This document shows, piece after piece, positions 1-12,125 of a stretch of 12,125 nt of DNA. Numbering within the stretch: the first letter of the stretch is position 1; each line of letters opens with the position of its first letter. The notes under the pieces are model-generated. The model had not been told where the DNA came from, ran no database searches, and saw only the letters and a list, made by a program, of their open reading frames with translations. Origin of the DNA: a virus. Its lineage: Duplodnaviria; Heunggongvirae; Uroviricota; Caudoviricetes. Location of the stretch: positions 1 to 12,125 of IMG/VR virus record IMGVR_UViG_2534681700_000010; one strand, written 5' to 3'. The translations under genes were made by a program, and so were the position numbers.

Positions 1-996
1 TTACCCTTCAAACTCTTGCTCCACAGAATCATTATCTGCGCATACAAAACCAAGCGCCTCCCCAAATCTCTCACGCGGAAAACCAGATTTGGGCACCCCC
101 ATAGAACTGTATGAACATCCCGGCATATTGGGTTTTTTGTCAAAGAGATCTGCAACCTGGCGGATCCATGTAGAATTTGGCCCGATCATTTTGACCAAAT
201 ACCAAATAATACATATCGCACTATAAAGACGCTCACTCGCAGGGGCATCTATTCTCAGTGAATTGAAGAAGGTTGTATTTGGTATTGGGATTCCAGCATG
301 TTTTCTATTCCAGATTCTGGAATGATGCGCACAACGATTACGCAAAAGATTCAGACATTGCAACCATTTGGTTAATGTTTGTTTATTGTCGATATTTAAT
401 CTTTTAATTATTTTGGCTTGTATACCACCATTCAGCATCGCGTAATATTTTGACATTTGGCCAAAATCCCAGGCTTCAACAACTACCCAAAAAGGGATCT
501 CCTTCCCCTGATTCAAATGCCAAAGAATGCACTCATCCCGGCTATCTTCCAGCTTTTTATCAAGCTTTTTCTGCCATTTTGTAAACGTGCTGGGTTTTCC
601 ATCATTAAGATAACGCTGGTTTATGTAGGATTCCTTTCTGTAAGCAAGCGGATCATATCGCCCTAATTCATGAGCGATAACGGAACGAATATGAATCTCA
701 ATACGTTCCAGGGCATCCATCATTAACATTCGAAGTTTTTTATCAAAAAGATAAAGATCGTATGCCTGCTCGAATGTAGTACCAGGGAGAAATTCATCGC
801 TCCTGAATGAAAGGCCTTCATCATTACAGCGAATGACGCGCGACGTATACCAAAACCCGGACAAGCGATAATAACCAACCTGAGACAGTTTCCTCATGGC
901 TCGCTTACAATCTCTGATTACCATGCCACGACTCAATAAAATCTCAAGCTGCTCTGAATATTCCTTATGTGGCTTTGCGGCAATCATACTCGTCAC
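1..996 (-). CDS. Abi_2-family (AbiD/AbiF-like) abortive-infection protein
   Basis: Complete ORF, stop TAA at 1-3. N-terminal EQLEILLSRGMVI...YYRLSGFWY and C-terminal LRNRCAHHSRIWNR match the conserved motifs of Abi_2 proteins as I recall them. The track start at 996 is GTG; the first ATG is at 987; neither has a strong SD. Hand counts of sampled 60-nt lines give about 25-40% GC, against about 50% in int. Confidence 0.75.
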   Translation of the reverse strand: MTSMIAAKPHKEYSEQLEILLSRGMVIRDCKRAMRKLSQVGYYRLSGFWYTSRVIRCNDEGLSFRSDEFLPGTTFEQAYDLYLFDKKLRMLMMDALERIEIHIRSVIAHELGRYDPLAYRKESYINQRYLNDGKPSTFTKWQKKLDKKLEDSRDECILWHLNQGKEIPFWVVVEAWDFGQMSKYYAMLNGGIQAKIIKRLNIDNKQTLTKWLQCLNLLRNRCAHHSRIWNRKHAGIPIPNTTFFNSLRIDAPASERLYSAICIIWYLVKMIGPNSTWIRQVADLFDKKPNMPGCSYSSMGVPKSGFPRERFGEALGFVCADNDSVEQEFEG

Positions 997-1446: not shown

Positions 1447-1712
1447 GGTTGACACTTTCCGGCTTAAGACCTTAACAAATCTTAACATCGCAGGTTGACA
1501 CACTTGACACTTTTTCGCGAAAAACCTTATCAAACCTTAGCATTTCTAAGCATGGCAACTTGACACTTTTCGCGATTTTTTCGGCTTTTTGACGTGGTAA
1601 ATCTGGCGAAAGGCCAGTAATGGCGGGGCTTACAGCGAGGTTGACACTTTTTTCGCGTTCAGAGTGTAAAGTGTCAACCTGGCAAGCTGCTCAACTTGAC
1701 ACTTTTTGATGT
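1447..1712. repeat. Array of TTGACAC-T(4-6)-CGCG-like repeats: five direct, one inverted, plus a degenerate half-copy
   Basis: Seen directly: TTGACAC at 1449, 1495 (half copy), 1504, 1560, 1641 and 1696 on the plus strand, and inverted GTGTCAA at 1671-1677. Four copies are followed by TTTT(T)(T)CGCG. Irregular spacing (46, 9, 56, 81, 55 bp). Interspersed AACCTTA / CTTAAC short repeats at 1468-1540. Sits immediately 3' of the HTH-protein gene (stop at 1712-1714). Confidence 0.6.
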
Positions 1713-2239
1713 CATTGATGGTCTGATTTTTCCCATTCAGCCAGGGCGTTTAGCCCGGCTTCACTCCATGATTCCAGTTCATCGGGATAATCACCTGCAA
1801 CATAGCAGAGTTCGCAACGCAGCATACGAATTGCCAGCCTGGCATTACCCCGCAAATTGTATTTTTCAAAGTAATGCTGCCCTTCATCATCCTCAAGGCA
1901 GATAGCACCATCATCAAGAAAGTGCACTTCCCAGCCTAATTCCCCGGCTGCATCCTGCACACGCTGCTGTATGTCATCGTCCGTTGCCGGCGCAGGAATT
2001 TTTCCGTCTCTGGCCTTAACTGCTTTCCAGAACTCGCCCCACGTCATTTCCAGCGTTCTTTCTGGCCACATTTCAGAAACTGTGTCTTTTCCCTGTGCTG
2101 CTGGGCTGTTCCGCTGTTCTGTCGCTTCCACATCGATTTTTTTACCGGACATGACCACTTCGCCTTTCTCGATCCAGTCGTAAACTGTCTGGCGGCTTAC
2201 GCCTTTGTGTTTGGCATATTCTGCCTTGCTCATCAGCAT
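1712..2239 (-). CDS. HTH DNA-binding protein (175 aa); possible packaging-redirection (Rpp / small-terminase-like) or regulatory protein
   Basis: N-terminus MSKAEYAKHKGVSRQTVYDWIEKGEV is a classic helix-turn-helix signature. GGTGAG SD-like sequence upstream of ATG 2239. Separated by 6 nt from the stop of the upstream ORF (operon). Functional assignment is inference. Confidence 0.7.
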   Translation of the reverse strand: MLMSKAEYAKHKGVSRQTVYDWIEKGEVVMSGKKIDVEATEQRNSPAAQGKDTVSEMWPERTLEMTWGEFWKAVKARDGKIPAPATDDDIQQRVQDAAGELGWEVHFLDDGAICLEDDEGQHYFEKYNLRGNARLAIRMLRCELCYVAGDYPDELESWSEAGLNALAEWEKSDHQ

Positions 2240-3981: not shown

Positions 3982-4269
3982 TCACTGACTGCAATTTTTC
4001 GATCCAGGGTATTTCCTGAATGCCTTACCATTGGGCTGATGTAATCCCATCCCGGCATGTGCCCGGCTGATGGTTTCGCGCATCTCCCCGAAATTATCCT
4101 GCCTTGCTGGTGGGCGTGCTGCCTTGCGGATACATTCCGCGCGACGTTTTGCCGCCTGTTCCCGTGCCTTGTCATCATTCGCCAGCATGATGACCTCAGC
4201 CCACCGCGCCGCCGCTCTCCGGTACAGACCACGCGCTTCCAGTGCTTCCGCTTTGCTGTCGTGAATCAT
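3982..4269 (-). CDS. PerC/Pch-like small transcriptional regulator (95 aa), tentative family call
   Basis: ATG at 4269 overlaps the upstream stop (ATGA). The AEALEARGLYRRAAARWAEV motif resembles the E-x-x-G-L-W-R-R-A-A-x-R-W core I recall for PerC-family proteins. The family call is from memory only. Confidence 0.5.
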   Translation of the reverse strand: MIHDSKAEALEARGLYRRAAARWAEVIMLANDDKAREQAAKRRAECIRKAARPPARQDNFGEMRETISRAHAGMGLHQPNGKAFRKYPGSKNCSQ

Positions 4270-4808
4270 GCGCCTGTTTTCTCCTTTGCTGCCCGGCGCT
4301 GACGTTTGCGCTTCTCATTCAGCGCCACCAGCCGCGTTTCTGCGTCCTGTTGTTCCTGTGGTGTCACCTCGCCGCACGGCTGGCCTTTCAGGTCGTAACG
4401 TGCACCACCAGCCATTAAGGCGCGGTAATAGCGCGGAGACTGCGCATAAGATGCCAGCGTCGCACGTAATGCCCCTGGCCCGAATGCCAGCCCCCTGACG
4501 GCGAGATCCTGCATCAGGTCGTCGAATATCCCCACCTTAAGCGGCTTCGGTGCTTCCCGGCTGAATAATTCAGGCCACAACTCAGTGAGGCGGTTAACGC
4601 GCCTGCGGTTTTTGCGCTGGCGCTTGGTCATATGCCGCCACGGTGTCGCCCCTGTGGGCTTCTGCTGCGCTTTCTGGTTACCGGGCATCACTTTATGCGC
4701 CGACGTGGTTTTATCCTGCTCCTGTGCCGCCTGCGTCGTTTTCTGCGGCGTGCCATAAATGCCTTTCGGTTTTCTGTTAATGGTCAGCTTAGTCATGCTT
4801 TGCCCCAT
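4266..4808 (-). CDS. ProQ/FinO-domain protein (RNA-chaperone-like), 180 aa
   Basis: PLKVGIFDDL...LRATLASYAQSPRYYRALMAGGARYDLKGQPCGEV aligns by eye to the FinO-like domain of E. coli ProQ (PLKIGIFQDL...[35 protein letters not shown]). Basic, low-complexity N-terminus. Start ATG at 4808 or 4796; both have weak SDs. Confidence 0.7.
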   Translation of the reverse strand: MGQSMTKLTINRKPKGIYGTPQKTTQAAQEQDKTTSAHKVMPGNQKAQQKPTGATPWRHMTKRQRKNRRRVNRLTELWPELFSREAPKPLKVGIFDDLMQDLAVRGLAFGPGALRATLASYAQSPRYYRALMAGGARYDLKGQPCGEVTPQEQQDAETRLVALNEKRKRQRRAAKEKTGA

Positions 4809-4814
4809 CGTTAC

Positions 4815-5152
4815 AACTGTCTACCAACTGTCTACCGATATAATTGATTGATTTATTTAATGTTATTAACTCATAACAAAAAAACAATCTGCAAACTGTC
4901 TACTAACTGTCTACCGCATTAATACATTGATAATTAATGATTTTTTCAAAGTGGTAGACAGAGTAGACAGTTAAAAGAGAAATTTTAAAAATGAACCCTT
5001 AACTATCTGTTTTTATATACCCCCCGTGGTTTAGGAATATAGAAACAACTGTCTACTCTCTACCACATTTAAAAATATCTATATAATTCAATGACTTAGC
5101 CGGTAGATAGTTGGTAGAGGGTTAAGTATTACTGTCTACCAACCGTCTACCT
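4815..5152. repeat. Putative replication origin: AACTGTCTACC iterons in both orientations around AT-rich tracts
   Basis: Direct copies at 4815-4825, 4826-4836, 4894-4904, 4905-4915, 5047-5057, 5131-5140 and 5141-5152. Inverted copies (GGTAGACAG / AGTAGACAG) at 4953-4961 and 4962-4970. Degenerate copies at 5001-5010 and 5102-5119. Very AT-rich spacers. Lies immediately 3' of the primase/helicase gene (ends 5179). Confidence 0.7.
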
Positions 5153-5178
5153 TTACGTTTCAGCTTATAAATTTCGTA

Positions 5179-6984
5179 TTATGTTCTGTCGTTAATCCCT
5201 GTTGCTGCTGGCAACCAGCCATCAGCATCATCATCTAACAGAACATTTGTTATCACTCGCCCTTTATCTGGGCCTTTAGTGCATTTAGCCCGCTTATACT
5301 CCTTTCCGTATTCCGCCATAGCACCCGGCATATCAGTGCCAAAGCGTTTCAGTGATACTGGTTTTCCCAGGCCATGCGCTGACATATAGGCTAAATAAGC
5401 ATGATACAGATATCGTCTCGGGCTAAATGGCACTATTCCCGCATTGCCCACCATCATTCCTTCACATTTAACCAACGACATCAGATAGCCGCAAAAGTCC
5501 ACCAGTGAATCACCCTCGCGTTTTATCACCAGAGCCTCTTCTGATTTCTGCTGCTCATATAACAGACGTCTGGCTTCATCCTGGTCAGAAAAACGAGTAA
5601 GCAGGTGGCGAATCACTACCGCCAGTTCGCATTCTATCTTTTCCGCCAGCATGGGATCGCGTTCGTTCTCCGGTACGACCTCAGAGAAATTAAATATCAC
5701 CCTACGACGCGAGATCCCCCCGCTTCGGTCACTGAATGACATGGCGTTATTGTTTACCGCAAGCACTACTGCCGGAATACGTGTGGAGTAGGGGGCTTTA
5801 TGTTTCGGGTCAATTGCCACCTTGTCGCCGCCAGTAATTGCCTTAATTCCTGCACCATCGCCAGCGTAGCGAGTCATATCCGGCATGATAATCAGCGAAA
5901 AGCCAACTACTAACGCGCGTTCCCTTGCGTCTTCCAGCGCCTTCATGCTTGCCGATACTGTGTTGGCCTTACCCGCCAGCATGGTACAAATCTCAGCCAT
6001 CACACTTTTACCGCTTCCGCCTGGGCCTGTTACCTCAAGGAATAACTGCCAGTCGTACCGGTTCGCCAGTACCATGAATAATGCCGCCAGTACGCGATCA
6101 GCTTTACGATCATTATCTGCCACCGAACGACGCAGCCACTTCCAGAAATTCGGCGCATGTGTTGCCAGCGTTTCCCCCTCTGCTGGCGGGCTGAACGGTA
6201 ATTCACTGGCATTTAACAACCAGTCATTTTTGTTATGCTCCCGAAAATTTCCCGTCCGGGTATCAAATACCCCGTTACTGAATCCAATAAGATTCCTGTC
6301 TGCCCCGCCCATAACAGGCAGGCTCAATTTCATTGTGTCTACGGCAAATTTAATGGCGTTTTGCGAATAACTGATTCCAGCATCAATAAAAATCTTCGCC
6401 ATAGACCGCTGGAGTTCCTTATCAGATACAGGCACCCAGACAATTCCGTTGTAATGGTGAACTACATCAGAATCATCATTTATAGCCAGTGCTCTTCCAT
6501 AATATTCAAGTAACACTTCCCCTCTCTGGCTGGCTCCCATCTGATTTAGTGCTGGCCTGGGTAGGTCAATATTTTTTGTGGTTAATTTCATCGCTGAAAC
6601 TTCCCCACTCTCTGCCTGTTCGCGGATCCGTTGCAGGTAATCGCGCCAGTTCTCCGGCTCCCGGTCGGTGATACCTTTGTATAATTTCGCCTCCTGTACG
6701 CCAGCCAGCGCCAGTTTTTCAGCGATAGCGTTGATCTGGATTGGCTCTATCTCCCCCGCAAGATAGACACGTGCAAAGCGGCGTTTCTCGTCAATAATGC
6801 GGATATTCACCAGGTCTGCCAGTTGCTTCGGCCCCAGGTAAACAGGTGGCACGTTATCGCCGTGTTTTCGTCCTTCGCTTTCAATCCAGTGTTGAGCATG
6901 GGCGTAAGCATCCGTCCCGGCAAAAATGATTACCTCGGTGAATTTATCCTTCGGCTGATATTTTAAATTCGGTGCGTTTTTCAC
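5179..6984 (-). CDS. Primase/helicase replication protein (P4-alpha / D5-like, SF3 helicase P-loop), 601 aa
   Basis: Walker A GPGGSGKS present, with a typical phage/plasmid primase C-terminal architecture. GTG start at 6984 overlaps the upstream stop (GTGA) and is preceded by GGGAGGT with a 5-nt spacer. The N-terminal region has no obvious toprim motif by eye. Confidence 0.9.
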   Translation of the reverse strand: MKNAPNLKYQPKDKFTEVIIFAGTDAYAHAQHWIESEGRKHGDNVPPVYLGPKQLADLVNIRIIDEKRRFARVYLAGEIEPIQINAIAEKLALAGVQEAKLYKGITDREPENWRDYLQRIREQAESGEVSAMKLTTKNIDLPRPALNQMGASQRGEVLLEYYGRALAINDDSDVVHHYNGIVWVPVSDKELQRSMAKIFIDAGISYSQNAIKFAVDTMKLSLPVMGGADRNLIGFSNGVFDTRTGNFREHNKNDWLLNASELPFSPPAEGETLATHAPNFWKWLRRSVADNDRKADRVLAALFMVLANRYDWQLFLEVTGPGGSGKSVMAEICTMLAGKANTVSASMKALEDARERALVVGFSLIIMPDMTRYAGDGAGIKAITGGDKVAIDPKHKAPYSTRIPAVVLAVNNNAMSFSDRSGGISRRRVIFNFSEVVPENERDPMLAEKIECELAVVIRHLLTRFSDQDEARRLLYEQQKSEEALVIKREGDSLVDFCGYLMSLVKCEGMMVGNAGIVPFSPRRYLYHAYLAYMSAHGLGKPVSLKRFGTDMPGAMAEYGKEYKRAKCTKGPDKGRVITNVLLDDDADGWLPAATGINDRT

Positions 6985-7271
6985 TTCTTACCTCCCGCAA
7001 CCAACATTGCCCGGATTTTTTTAATATTCGTGGCTGCACGTCTTGCCACTGCCTGTTGTTTGTTTTCAACCAGAATAAAATCACGCTCAAACTGACGGCG
7101 CGGCATTACGCAGTCATATTCGTAAGCCTCACGGCGGTAGGTGATATTGCCTGGCGTAACGTGACGAATAACCACTCGTCCCCCACGTCTGGTGTCGCGG
7201 TAAATATCGCCGTGTCTGATTTCAGGTCGAGCGGGGCCGCTGGCAGTAAAGCCAGAATTTTTCTTTTTCAT
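6981..7271 (-). CDS. Hypothetical basic protein (96 aa)
   Basis: ATG at 7271 with AGGAG upstream. Stop overlaps the primase GTG start. No family recognised. Confidence 0.6.
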   Translation of the reverse strand: MKKKNSGFTASGPARPEIRHGDIYRDTRRGGRVVIRHVTPGNITYRREAYEYDCVMPRRQFERDFILVENKQQAVARRAATNIKKIRAMLVAGGKK

Positions 7272-7277
7272 GGTTTT

Positions 7278-7643
7278 TTACTCCTGCGTCTTGCTCTGAA
7301 TTACCTGATAACCGCAACTGGTCAGCAATTCGATAAATTCCGGCAGTGTTCCGAAACAGCAATTATCACGCAGCCGTTCGCGGGATACTTCAACGCCGTT
7401 TTCGTAGTGACTCACCATGCGTCCGGTAAAATGCAGATCATCATCGTGATGGCACGTTGACGGCTTAATCAGTCGCGCACGTTCTGCCAGCTCCAGCAAT
7501 GCTTCAACACTTCCGGCAATTGCACCATCCGGCAGGTGGTAATTACGCACTATGCGCCCGTTCTCCACATGGACCAGTAGCTGCCCGGTAAATTTCTCGT
7601 CAAACTGAATGCGGTTAAGGTCGGTAAGTGACAGGTTAATCAT
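7278..7643 (-). CDS. Hypothetical protein (121 aa)
   Basis: ATG at 7643 preceded by AGGAGG with a 6-nt spacer. Start overlaps the stop of the upstream small ORF (ATGATTAA). Confidence 0.65.
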   Translation of the reverse strand: MINLSLTDLNRIQFDEKFTGQLLVHVENGRIVRNYHLPDGAIAGSVEALLELAERARLIKPSTCHHDDDLHFTGRMVSHYENGVEVSRERLRDNCCFGTLPEFIELLTSCGYQVIQSKTQE

Positions 7644-7839
7644 GGCGTACCTCCTGACGAATACGGGCGGCGAATACCATCACGCAGCCATCAGGAGATT
7701 GCTGGCGTGCTTCCTGTTCGCTGGTGGCCTCGATGTGAATCACGCGCGGTTGTGCCGTGCTCAGAGCGATAAAACGCCAGATGTATTTATTCAGGTTGTG
7801 CGAGTCCCGCCCTTGCGGGTGTGTGGTATGATTTCTCAT
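7636..7839 (-). CDS. Hypothetical small protein (67 aa), first gene of the primase operon
   Basis: Internal ATG at 7839 of the long track ORF, preceded by GAGGT. Its stop overlaps the next start. Upstream of this point the same reading frame has antisense-like composition. Confidence 0.5.
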   Translation of the reverse strand: MRNHTTHPQGRDSHNLNKYIWRFIALSTAQPRVIHIEATSEQEARQQSPDGCVMVFAARIRQEVRHD

Positions 7840-7905
7840 AGCTACCTCGATAATCTTGCTATCGTTGGTGGTTAGAAGCCCTGCGAGTGGTAACGACACT
7901 TGCGG

Positions 7906-7992
7906 GGCTTTGCCTTTAAGGTGCAAGTCACCTTTGAGGGTTATGCTACTTTTAGGTGACTTGCACTTCAAGCCTTTTTTTATTTTTTTTTC
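7906..7992 (+). promoter_or_regulatory. Large hairpin (perfect 12-bp inverted repeat inside an extended stem) followed by a T7-A-T9 tract
   Basis: GTGCAAGTCACC (7921-7932) and GGTGACTTGCAC (7955-7966) are perfect reverse complements. Outer GGCTT (7906-7910) pairs with AAGCC (7970-7974). T-tract at 7975-7991. Sits between the divergent RHH-like gene and the primase operon start. Confidence 0.5.
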
Positions 7993-8032
7993 TACGTATA
8001 CTGAACGCCACCTAACAGTAAGGAGGCCAGTA

Positions 8033-8212
8033 ATGCCAACGGGTACAACCAACAACAAATCACAACAAAAAACGGCTAGAATCCCTCTAGAAGTTTTAAG
8101 CGAAATGAATTTGGTCAAAGAGGAAAACGAAACAGACGCGCAGTTTATCGTTACAGCCATGCGTGGCGAGATCAAACGCCGCCAGCGCCGCAAGGCCAAA
8201 GAACAGGAGTAA
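8033..8212 (+). CDS. Small ribbon-helix-helix-like DNA-binding protein (59 aa); candidate repressor
   Basis: TAAGGAGG ends 6 nt before ATG 8033. TATACT (-10-like) at 7997-8002. Protein is hydrophilic with common E. coli codons; TARIPLEVLSEMNLV looks like an RHH beta-strand plus helix. Conflicts with the 402-aa minus-strand track ORF, which I judge antisense here. Confidence 0.55.
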   Translation: MPTGTTNNKSQQKTARIPLEVLSEMNLVKEENETDAQFIVTAMRGEIKRRQRRKAKEQE

Positions 8213-8269
8213 CCATCACCAGCGCCGTGGTGTGAGGAACTACGGTGCATCGTTTTACAGGGCAGCGCC

Positions 8270-8449
8270 ATGACCAACAAAGAATCAACCAAAACACCAT
8301 CACCAACTCGTAAGAGACGACGCAAAAATATAGCGCATGAACATGAATCAGAAAGATTCGCACCTTGTTCGTTTGCTCTTGAGAAATTCCTTAAAGAGCA
8401 CAGGAAAAAGCTCTCGTTGCAAACCTTGGAACGAACCAAATCTGACTGA
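8270..8449 (+). CDS. Possible small basic protein (59 aa), not in the ORF track
   Basis: ATG 8270 to TGA 8447-8449, translated by hand as MTNKESTKTPSPTRKRRRKNIAHEHESERFAPCSFALEKFLKEHRKKLSLQTLERTKSD. Weak SD and several rare codons (AGA, CGA, ATA, AGG). Confidence 0.3.
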   Translation: MTNKESTKTPSPTRKRRRKNIAHEHESERFAPCSFALEKFLKEHRKKLSLQTLERTKSD

Positions 8450-8653
8450 TCACATTGCCCACCAGCCGCAAATGTGGCATTGTTGGTGATGCGTTCAAGT
8501 ATGTAGCTTTTCCACTGGCGGCTCTCTGCGGTCGCCTTTGTTTTATCCAGAACGAAATCAGACATCAGATTGATCAGCACCTGGCGACCTGACAAAATCG
8601 CATCAGTCGCGCCACCAGCAAAATTTTTTGCTTTCCGGACAGCGTGGCCAACG

Positions 8654-8672
8654 ATATTTTGCAGCAAAATAT
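8654..8672. promoter_or_regulatory. Perfect 19-bp palindrome ATATTTTGC-A-GCAAAATAT
   Basis: Read directly from the sequence: 9-bp arms around a single central base. Lies in the unresolved region between the antirepressor gene and the small plus-strand ORFs. Confidence 0.35.
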
Positions 8673-8836
8673 TCTGCATTTCTGGCGTGCTGTGGCGACG
8701 GTGATCAGCGCCTTCACATTGAACGAACTTGTCGCTAAAATTCACCCACATAGCAAACATCGCGGTGCTGTAGGTAATTCGTTCACAAAGGCGCTCCGGC
8801 AACGGGGCGCTTTCTCTTTTTGTAACGGTCAGAGCG

Positions 8837-9637
8837 TTACACATGGCTGTTTTCCTCCATGCGACGGGCTAACCAACGCTGCGAAAGACGAATTAATTCA
8901 GCCTTCCGCTGGTGGTAGTCCTGGCCTAACTCAATCAGCGTGATATTGCTCTGCTCAAGGTAAGAAAGGTGCTCAAGCTGCAACGTGCTCATGTGGTCGC
9001 GTGGTTCGCCTGTAATGCCGTTCGCCAGTGCCCACTGTTTTGCAGTCATGCCACCCAGCACGATACGCGCCAGCATGTTCGCTTCCGTGGTGTAGTGGTG
9101 CTGGAGTGTGTTTTTACCCAGTTCAGCCCGGTACGCCTCCAGCGCGGCACACATTGGCTTAAAGTAGCTGGCAACTGTGATACGGGCTTTCAGTTCCCGG
9201 CGTAACGCTGCGGAACGAACAGGCGCAACCTTGTGTAGCTCCTCCTCGCATTTGATAAAGTACTGGCGAACGGCGCGGCCCTGTTCGGTACGTTCGACCA
9301 TCGCCAGTTCTTTCGCCATGTTCACTGTGATGATGTACTCAAGAGCGGTTTGCTGGCGAGATTTTGCGCTCACCGGATCGGGTCGGCTCAAATATTCAAC
9401 AACCTCATAATCCACGCCTTCCGTGAACCCGTATTCTTCAATGCGCCCCTTGATCCACGAACGGAAAACGCGCCCTACACCTAACGCCTTATGTAACGCT
9501 CTGGCGCTAACAATAGTGGTTTCACTCCCGCCAATAACGCCGGAAATAATCGGGATAATTTCGCCGAAATTTTGCAGATTCTGGTTTTCAGGCCGAACGA
9601 AGCCCCGCCCCTGTACGGGCGTTTTTGGAAATTTCAT
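8837..9637 (-). CDS. Phage antirepressor, AntA-domain protein (266 aa)
   Basis: ITVNMAKELAMVERTEQGRAVRQYFIKCEE and the preceding IPIISGVIGGSETTIVSARALHKALGV match AntA/AntB-type N-terminal antirepressor domains. ATG 9637 preceded by AGGAG with a 5-nt spacer. Confidence 0.85.
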   Translation of the reverse strand: MKFPKTPVQGRGFVRPENQNLQNFGEIIPIISGVIGGSETTIVSARALHKALGVGRVFRSWIKGRIEEYGFTEGVDYEVVEYLSRPDPVSAKSRQQTALEYIITVNMAKELAMVERTEQGRAVRQYFIKCEEELHKVAPVRSAALRRELKARITVASYFKPMCAALEAYRAELGKNTLQHHYTTEANMLARIVLGGMTAKQWALANGITGEPRDHMSTLQLEHLSYLEQSNITLIELGQDYHQRKAELIRLSQRWLARRMEENSHV

Positions 9638-9714: not shown

Positions 9715-9912
9715 TCAGGTAGCTGTTCCGCGTGATTCCGCAATACGCTGATTAATCCACTCGTCAATTTCACTCTCAACGAAAGCAATAGCTCGCGAGC
9801 CAATTTTTACAGGTTTAGGAAAACGCCCTTGGGCAATGAGTTTATAGATCCATGCCCTTCCATACCCTGTACGGCGCATGGTTTCTGGCATACGAATTAA
9901 AGATTGTGACAT
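9715..9912 (-). CDS. alpA: AlpA-family transcriptional regulator / excisionase-like protein (65 aa from ATG 9912)
   Basis: MRRTGYGRAWIYKLIAQGRFPKPVKIGSRAIAFVESEIDEWI matches the AlpA motif pattern. GGGAGA lies 8 nt upstream of ATG 9912. The track's longer version (start 9981) is probably an N-terminal over-extension. Confidence 0.85.
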   Translation of the reverse strand: MSQSLIRMPETMRRTGYGRAWIYKLIAQGRFPKPVKIGSRAIAFVESEIDEWINQRIAESRGTAT

Positions 9913-10026
9913 GATAATCGTCTCCCGTTGTTTATTGATGCCTACGGGAGACATTGAAGCAGGTAAGACATTGGATATCACCGCAATTGCGGTGAATGAT
10001 ACCGCAATTGCGGTATAGGACTACAA

Positions 10027-10782: not shown

Positions 10783-10910
10783 TCTGTGCTACCTCGCACC
10801 CTCTGTAAAAGTGGCTGTGCCAGCCCGCAGAGGTGTACGGGTTTTCAGGAGCGACCCTAGACACAGCCTTTTCTTAATCGCTCAAAGTCTACTACTGTAT
10901 ACTCAACCAG

Positions 10911-12125
10911 TCACCCGCATTTTCCGAACTCACCATGCACCACATTTCCGCCATGCTCGAGCGAATCCATATAGTCGGCATACCACTGGAGCATCTCCCG
11001 GCGACCATCCAGATATTGCGCATGGTTGTATGTGCCACGAATTGAGTTTTTATCGACGTGTGCGAGCTGCGTCTCTATCCACGCGGTGTTATAGCCCTGC
11101 TCATGCAAAATGGTGCTCATGGTGTGCCGGAATCCATGACCAGTAACGCGCCCGGCATAGCCGATACGACGAATGAGCACATTCATCGCCATTTCACTCA
11201 TTGGCTTACTGTGGTGAATACGACCGGGGAAAATAAACTGATACTGGCCTGTCATGTTTTTTAACTGCTCCAGTATTTTTATCGCCTGTTCTGGTAATGG
11301 CACACAATGCGGACGGCGCATCTTCATTCGTTCTTTAGGCACTTCCCACAAACGATTATCAAAATCGATCTCCTGCCATTCTGCCTGCCGTAATTCCCCG
11401 GGTCTGACACCTGTCAGAATTAATAGCCGCATTGCCAGTTTGACGATCTGGCTTCCGGTGTACGTATTAAAAACGCGGAAAAATTCCGGCAGTTCGTCGG
11501 CCTTCAAATAGGCGTAATGCTCTTTTTTATGTGGAGCAAATGCGCTCACCAGGTCAGGGGCTGGATTATATTCGGCGCGTCCGGTGATGATTGCGTACCG
11601 GAACACCTCGCCGCATCGCTGGCGAACCTTACGCAATTTTTCAGTCGCACCACGGTCATTAAGACGGGAAAGAACCGCCAGCAATTCCATCGGCTTAATT
11701 TCTGCGATCGGCCTACCGCCAATGTACGGAAAAACATCTTTTTCAAACGTCTCGATCATTTCCTCGGCGTATGACGATGACCACCTGTCGATCCGCTTTT
11801 CGTACCATTCGCGAGCAATACCCTCAAAAGTATTGCCAAATTTGCTCGCCTGTTCTCGCTTTTGGGCTTTTCTGGCCTCACTTGGATTTATACCACCAGC
11901 AAGAAGCCTTTTAGCCTCATCCCTTGCCGCCCTGGCATCAGACAGAGACACATCAGGGTACACACCCAACGACAACATTTTGGGCTTTCCTGCAAACCTG
12001 TAGCGCAGTCGCCACCCTTTCGAACCGTTCGGCTCAATGAGCAACGAAAGCCCGTTACCGTCATTGAGTGTATAAGCCTTTTCTTTCGGCTTCGCGCGCC
12101 TGATGGCAAGGTCTGAAAGCAGCAT
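10911..12125 (-). CDS. int: Tyrosine site-specific integrase, P4/IntA family
   Basis: Close by-eye match to E. coli IntA-type integrases: N-terminal LSDLAIRRAKPKEKAY...DGNGLSLLI arm-binding region and C-terminal HGFRHT...RGTYNHAQY catalytic region. The ATG falls on the last three bases of the window, so the true start may be slightly upstream and outside it. Confidence 0.95.
   Translation of the reverse strand: MLLSDLAIRRAKPKEKAYTLNDGNGLSLLIEPNGSKGWRLRYRFAGKPKMLSLGVYPDVSLSDARAARDEAKRLLAGGINPSEARKAQKREQASKFGNTFEGIAREWYEKRIDRWSSSYAEEMIETFEKDVFPYIGGRPIAEIKPMELLAVLSRLNDRGATEKLRKVRQRCGEVFRYAIITGRAEYNPAPDLVSAFAPHKKEHYAYLKADELPEFFRVFNTYTGSQIVKLAMRLLILTGVRPGELRQAEWQEIDFDNRLWEVPKERMKMRRPHCVPLPEQAIKILEQLKNMTGQYQFIFPGRIHHSKPMSEMAMNVLIRRIGYAGRVTGHGFRHTMSTILHEQGYNTAWIETQLAHVDKNSIRGTYNHAQYLDGRREMLQWYADYMDSLEHGGNVVHGEFGKCG

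Follow-up and report, generated by a model that had tools for sequence, protein, structure and literature searches.

A repeat array behind a P4 alpha-like initiator gene is very probably the replication origin of an E. coli-type PICI

The repeat array at positions 4815-5151, directly behind the initiator gene, is very probably the replication origin of an E. coli-type PICI. The DNA analysed here (12,125 bp, hereafter the window) extends from the integrase gene to the accessory end of the island. Four observations point to origin function: the published test of the related island EcCICFT073, the homology of the initiator to the origin-binding domain (OBD) of P4 alpha, the co-variation of a loop in this domain with the iteron sequence, and the constant linkage of array and initiator gene. 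Origin function is supported through homology to an initiator, that of EcCICFT073, which is only 44% identical to the one encoded in the window.

The iteron is 11 bp long and contains the core TGTCTACC. The 12,125-bp window contains 17 copies of AACTGTCTACC with up to two mismatches where 1.9 are expected; none of 200 shuffles reaches 17, and 12 of the copies lie inside 4815-5151. Local shuffling of this A+T-rich segment alone yields 0.15 copies on average and two at most. Three copies are perfect (4815, 4826, 4905), six carry one mismatch (4894, 4962, 5047, 5102, 5130, 5141) and three carry two (4953, 5054, 5113). The original prediction had counted about eleven copies; the repeats are real and lie where it had placed them, but at this threshold they number twelve. 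Its description of tandem pairs in both orientations holds, with six pairs of which four are on the plus and two on the minus strand (Table 1). The pairs also bracket three spacers of 78-81% A+T, in agreement with the very AT-rich tracts it had described, and the first iteron of pair 6 follows the stop codon of the initiator gene by 27 bp, which confirms the proposed position directly 3' of the replication gene.

Read in gene orientation, the pairs are arranged as << >> AT << 74 bp >> AT << AT <<, whereas the commoner order in relatives is >> AT << >> << > AT << with a length of about 230 bp instead of 337 bp. Among seven close relatives, 84% of iteron columns and 76% of spacer columns are invariant, a difference that is not significant (chi-square ~3.5). 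About 100 complete E. coli genomes carry this intergenic array at 88-93% identity, always flanked by genes annotated as 'DNA primase family protein' and 'ProQ/FINO family protein'. No open reading frame of 40 or more amino acids lies wholly within 4848-5178. A full-text literature search with the iteron sequences returned unrelated primer matches only, and the supplements of Fillol-Salom et al. (2018; PMC6092414) contain no iteron sequences. In E. coli FDAARGOS_1302 (locus L091), an IS3-family element is located in the origin and the lost part corresponds to window positions 4809-4924, that is, pairs 1 and 2.

Table 1. Coordinates of genes, protein domains and origin elements, annotated or predicted, in the 12,125-bp window.
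Feature	Coordinates	Strand	Remarks
Tyrosine integrase (int)	12125..10911	-	
int-alpA RNA (Rfam RF02996)	10799-10867	-	49.8 bits; between int and a 251-aa ORF
AlpA	9981..9715	-	
AntA-type antirepressor	9637..8837	-	
DUF4222 protein	7271..6981	-	
Initiator/helicase (Pri-Rep, P4 alpha-like)	6984..5179	-	601 aa; D5_N, SF3 helicase (DUF5906), Pox_D5 C-terminal domain
N-terminal TOPRIM-like domain (aa 1-128)	6601..6984	-	without canonical E / DxD residues
Origin-binding winged-helix domain (aa 491-592)	5209..5514	-	PDB 1KA8 (P4 alpha OBD), E=8.4e-20
Loop CTKGPDKGR (aa 568-576), probable wing	5257..5283	-	between two predicted strands; +5 aa relative to P4
Whole origin, very probable (six iteron pairs and A+T-rich spacers)	4815..5151	.	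337 bp
Iteron pair 6	5130..5151	+	11-bp step
Iteron pair 5	5102..5123	-	inverted; 11-bp step
Spacer 3	5065..5101	.	37 bp, 78% A+T; contains the window's second least stable 30-mer
Iteron pair 4	5047..5064	+	7-bp step, so that copies overlap; relatives have an 8-bp step
Central spacer	4973..5046	.	74 bp, 70% A+T
Iteron pair 3	4953..4972	-	9-bp step; inverted relative to pairs 1 and 2
Spacer 2	4916..4952	.	37 bp, 81% A+T
Predicted IHF-consensus match TATCAATGTATTA	4920..4932	-	exact match, spacer 2
Iteron pair 2	4894..4915	+	11-bp step
Spacer 1	4837..4893	.	57 bp, 81% A+T; least stable 30-mer of the window at 4839-4868; candidate unwinding element
Predicted IHF-consensus match AATCAATCAATTA (consensus WATCAANNNNTTR)	4841..4853	-	exact match, spacer 1
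Iteron pair 1	4815..4836	+	two perfect AACTGTCTACC copies, 11-bp step; one base varies among seven relatives
ProQ/FinO family gene	4808..4266	-	likelier start 4796; outside origin; varies among relatives
PerC	4269..3982	-	
DUF2213 protein		-	
TerS-like HTH protein	2239..1712	-	
Abi_2 protein	996..1	-	accessory end of island

The DNA between the iteron pairs is the least stable of the entire window. G+C content falls to 24-35% across the array compared to 50-63% in the adjoining genes, and of all 30-mers in the 12 kb the three with the lowest stability fall in spacers 1, 2 and 3. The central spacer contains, in the middle of the A+T-rich origin, the G+C block CCCCCCGTGG (5020-5029), which is invariant in seven relatives. 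The window holds only two exact matches to the IHF consensus, both within origin spacers and on the gene strand, compared to 0.04 expected from local shuffles (P ~0.001). In seven E. coli and E. ruysiae relatives, substitutions in these sites occur only at N positions of the consensus. Similarly, 45 loci of the Xenorhabdus/Photorhabdus group possess one IHF-consensus site at a fixed place, about 79 bp (range 78-118) behind the stop codon, again with varying N positions. Matches to the DnaA box (TTWTNCACA) do not exceed chance, with a single one-mismatch match in the region.

The origins of Gram-negative PICIs are located immediately 3' of pri-rep and consist of iteron sets around an A+T-rich region (Fillol-Salom et al., 2018, ISME J, PMC6092414). 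The array studied here has the same layout, lying immediately 3' of pri-rep (stop codon 5179-5181) with iterons flanking A+T-rich DNA. In EcCICFT073, a pri-ori fragment keeps a thermosensitive plasmid at the restrictive temperature; deletion of pri abolishes colony formation while deletion of ori lowers it significantly without abolishing it (PMC6092414). We located EcCICFT073 in the CFT073 chromosome and found its iterons to be CTGTCTACC, CTATCTACC and CTCTCTACC, all with the core TGTCTACC that is also the core of the window iteron. The two islands are alike in type and gene order, in the location of the origin 3' of pri-rep, in having iterons in both orientations and in the A+T-rich DNA. They differ in the recognition-helix and loop sequences of their initiators, in tandem step (11 bp in the window, 9 bp in EcCICFT073), in origin size (six pairs and three A+T tracts over 337 bp in the window, about 230 bp in EcCICFT073) and in the genes downstream (ProQ and PerC compared to a small ORF, SSB and PerC). 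Since core and position are shared, the kind of feature, its position and its core motif are already published and tested in this sister island. As an origin, the array consequently adds little and represents a correct but ordinary finding.

The gene order int, alpA, antA, pri, ProQ/FinO, PerC, TerS-like and Abi identifies the island, at the level of sequence, as an E. coli-type Gram-negative PICI. All window genes are on the minus strand, and int, alpA, transcription from one strand and PICI-type accessory genes are all present. An identical helicase sequence occurs in 72 E. coli contigs, and syntenic E. coli islands were found. The SaPI/PICI organisation proposed originally stands with respect to PICI gene order, but the mechanism is closer to that of P4 (alpha protein, type I iterons and crr) than to that of SaPI. 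tRNA and Rfam scans returned nothing in the array region and the int-alpA RNA as the sole match in the window. The Abi_2 gene, which is abortive-infection-like, is likely anti-phage cargo. The product of a 402-aa ORF at 7636-8844 on the minus strand resembles non-protein sequence except for an Icd-like C-terminus. The 402-aa ORF is probably spurious, since related annotated islands carry several small genes at the equivalent location, among them an Icd-like gene and, on the opposite strand, YlcI/YnfO.

The initiator combines a helicase core and a P4-type winged-helix origin-binding domain with a short TOPRIM-like N-terminus. Residues 146-592 are 50% identical to P4 alpha, with the match beginning at residue 146. 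In the HMMER alignment to 1KA8, five extra residues in the loop CTKGPDKGR represent an insertion relative to P4. The binding domain was also modelled with AlphaFold; the model has low confidence (pLDDT 52.6), was used for strand and loop positions only, and places CTKGPDKGR in a loop joining two short strands, suggesting that it is the probable wing of the winged helix. The P4 domain resembles Rfx, which contacts DNA via helix 3 and the wing (PMC2777425). Residues 1-128 match no Pfam family and belong to a PHROG of unknown function. In the family alignment, strand 1 is followed by an invariant Ala-Gly and strand 3 by a near-invariant Ala-Gly, at positions where TOPRIM enzymes have Glu and Asp-x-Asp, respectively. 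The domain consequently looks like an inactivated TOPRIM. P4 alpha, in contrast, begins with a zinc-finger/TOPRIM primase, and the short window domain does not match an active primase of this kind. Because the catalytic acidic motifs are absent, primase activity is unproven; of the primase/helicase label in the original prediction, the helicase and initiator role is supported whereas 'primase' is unsupported for the N-terminal domain.

The repeats themselves also resemble those of P4. The window iteron ACTGTCTACC and the extended P4 type I iteron ACTGTTCACC are identical at eight of ten positions, the central TC of P4 being CT in the window. The core TGTCTACC agrees with the P4 octamer TGTTCACC at six of eight positions and is not itself a P4 octamer. 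Relatives with 70-73% identical proteins do use TGTTCACC; one of them, at 73% identity, is the induced capsid-forming element vB_KppS-Ant, whose gene is directly followed by P4-type iterons of this sequence. In P4, crr lies immediately 3' of alpha and contains type I iterons in both orientations (annotation of NC_001609), and the window array occupies the same position. The P4-like binding domain, the two-base iteron variant and the crr position together lead us to assign the window origin to the P4 type I iteron system, as a variant in sequence that occupies the place of crr. There are differences: crr consists of two 120-bp direct repeats, and no such long internal duplication was found in the window array.

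P4 requires two separated sites in cis, crr and ori, the latter being a second cluster 2.3 kb upstream of the alpha start. The window array, at exactly the crr position, could by analogy be a cis enhancer with the start site elsewhere, possibly at a second repeat array (1417-1705), but we consider this very unlikely. The window's own iteron forms no second cluster elsewhere in the window. In a count over 84 loci that required four exact copies per cluster, 74 have a single cluster immediately behind the gene, nine do not reach four copies and only P4 (L002) has two. In addition, the EcCICFT073 pri-ori fragment suffices alone to maintain a plasmid (PMC6092414).

The second array is located 3.1 kb from the origin, between the TerS-like HTH gene and a 63-aa ORF near the right end of the island. 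It comprises 7-8 copies of [GA][GC]TTGACAC[TA]TT, one of them inverted (1669-1679), together with CCTTA[AGT]C sub-repeats. On the minus strand its core reads TGTCAACC, a single base away from TGTCTACC, which would suit a bipartite arrangement as in P4, but its repeat extends to a longer unit, TTGACACTTTTTCGCG, unlike the origin iterons, and it adjoins the TerS-like gene rather than the initiator. The array is 90-99% conserved in 166 E. coli genomes. A locus with a 98% identical initiator (L006) has no TTGACAC copy within its 4-kb flank, although the flank may end too early. The E. coli PICI locus L092 combines an array of the 1417-1705 type with a CFT073-like initiator; its iterons share the TCTACC core, and the case is therefore non-discriminating. 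Judged by its repeat unit and surroundings, the 1417-1705 array is probably a separate site that is packaging-related or bound by TerS.

To compare iterons with initiators, we collected 80 of 427 tblastn-confirmed loci for initiator relatives, drawn from one-genome-per-species contigs. The set was completed by P4, vB_KppS-Ant, two further records from phage collections and E. coli loci. The 450 bp behind the stop codon contain, in 84 of 85 loci, a repeated motif belonging to one of five iteron classes. The loop segment compared is the stretch of the binding domain from 'EYGKEY' to 'xxSN'. Class TTCACC (66 loci) occurs with a loop without insertion (K-x-G-I-R-S-N), class CTCCAC (8 loci) with a loop longer by one residue (KGNMRSN) and class GTCTAC, which includes the window (7 loci), with a +5 loop containing PDKGR. 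Class GTCCGC (3 loci) has a different +5 loop (KKATRGR) and class GTCCAC (1 locus) a third (GPSKGN). Each class pairs one-to-one with a single loop variant across 84 loci, a co-variation that, because the five classes represent few lineages, amounts to about four evolutionary events and not to 84 independent observations. In contrast, the segment aligned with the recognition helix (S-L-x-R-F-G-x-D-M-P-G-A-M-A-E-Y) hardly varies across loci.

Three unrelated N-terminal architectures are found among the initiators, namely the short MKNAPN...FAG type of the window, the MSDALFSCVY type and the full P4 zinc-finger/TOPRIM primase. The GTCTAC and TTCACC classes each occur with all three, and the pairing of loop and iteron holds throughout. 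The module of helicase, binding domain and iterons is common to these three architectures (L015, L018, L030, L016, L036 and others), and a shared module under three N-termini indicates apparent domain shuffling.

Downstream of the array, a crude ORF call yields 55 families in 77 loci while the array stays with the initiator gene. Co-variation with the loop and the variable downstream gene together argue that the repeats would be read by the initiator's own C-terminal domain and not by a regulator of the downstream gene. The same evidence makes it highly improbable that the repeats serve mainly as a transcriptional operator without origin function, be it for autoregulation of pri or for control of ProQ/PerC, since the co-variation speaks against another binding protein and the downstream gene differs in most relatives. 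Such a role would fit the distance of only 6 bp between the array end and the first ATG (4808) of the ProQ/FinO ORF, and iterons of plasmids can double as operators. One promoter-like match on the plus strand makes use of the iteron half GTAGACA, which is similar to a -35 hexamer. A scan of 4600-5400 nevertheless detected no sigma-70-like promoter on the gene strand, and promoter-like matches did not exceed expectation (one compared to 1.9). Two further facts speak against an operator: nowhere in the window is the DNA less stable than between the repeats, and the homologous module replicates (PMC6092414). No terminator was found between pri and the array in the same interval, whereas P4 has one between alpha and crr. 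Lacking both a gene-strand promoter and a terminator after pri, the array is probably transcribed through from the AlpA-dependent operon.

Repeated protein-binding sites are also typical of cosB/pac and centromere-like sites. PICIs of this group carry cos sites (PMC6092414). We nevertheless give almost no credence to the array being a packaging (cos/pac) or partition site instead of an origin. A lambda cosN-like sequence is absent from the window, the repeats are variants of P4 type I iterons tied to an origin-binding domain, and the TerS-like gene with its own adjoining repeat array is located elsewhere.

If the array acts as an origin, the following sequence of events can be proposed. A helper phage would trigger AlpA-dependent transcription of the operon, leading to production of the initiator, whose C-terminal domain would dock on the iteron pairs. 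The 11-bp step would set two domains on the same face of the helix, and IHF would probably introduce bends at its two consensus matches within the spacers. One of the A+T-rich spacers would then melt and receive the SF3 helicase part, which could load itself as a hexamer independently of DnaA, in the manner of P4 and the SaPI Rep proteins. Subsequent autonomous replication would make the island a substrate for packaging.

This scheme can be compared with two other kinds of replicon. SaPI systems (SaPIbov1, SaPI1; Pri/Rep) likewise have a satellite origin 3' of rep with two iteron sets around an A+T melting region, and their initiator is a self-loading SF3 helicase. Similarity of the window helicase core to the SaPI Rep structure (PDB 7OLA) is weak (E=8e-10), iteron sequences and DNA-binding domains are unrelated, and the SaPI host is Gram-positive. 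SaPI induction proceeds by Stl de-repression, whereas AlpA activation is expected for the window island (PMC6092414). Iteron plasmids (pSC101, R6K, RK2, P1) share repeated initiator sites beside an A+T-rich unwinding element and, judged by the two consensus matches, may also share IHF sites inside the origin. Their Rep protein, however, recruits DnaB whereas the window initiator is itself the helicase, they have one direct array where the window has many inverted pairs, and the DnaA boxes found beside plasmid iterons have no counterpart above chance in the window.

The survey allows a broader but tentative reading, to which we lean slightly less than to its opposite. The wing loop, and not the helix aligned with the recognition helix, may set iteron specificity; enterobacterial satellites may hold at least five orthogonal initiator/iteron modules; and the cluster behind the gene may be ancestral and P4 ori derived. 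This reading would cover PICIs, capsid-forming PICIs and P4-like elements, with modules travelling under different N-terminal domains, and the window array, with TGTCTACC and its +5 loop containing PDKGR, would be one specificity group. A universal code in which loop length equals iteron class was rejected, since EcCICFT073 pairs the same TGTCTACC core with an uninserted loop and a different helix. If the tracking of loop and iteron were confirmed, it would explain how co-resident satellites avoid cross-talk between their origins and would provide a compact specificity module that can be swapped between orthogonal replicons. For the island itself, the array marks it as probably replication-competent and gives a defined initiator/iteron pair.

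The E. coli PICI at L092 possesses two origin modules side by side, at 12417-12894 and 13303-13618. A CFT073-like pri with TCTACC iterons is adjoined by a pseudogene fragment of a RepA helicase, which is followed by six copies of the unrelated iteron AAAGTGGGGA.
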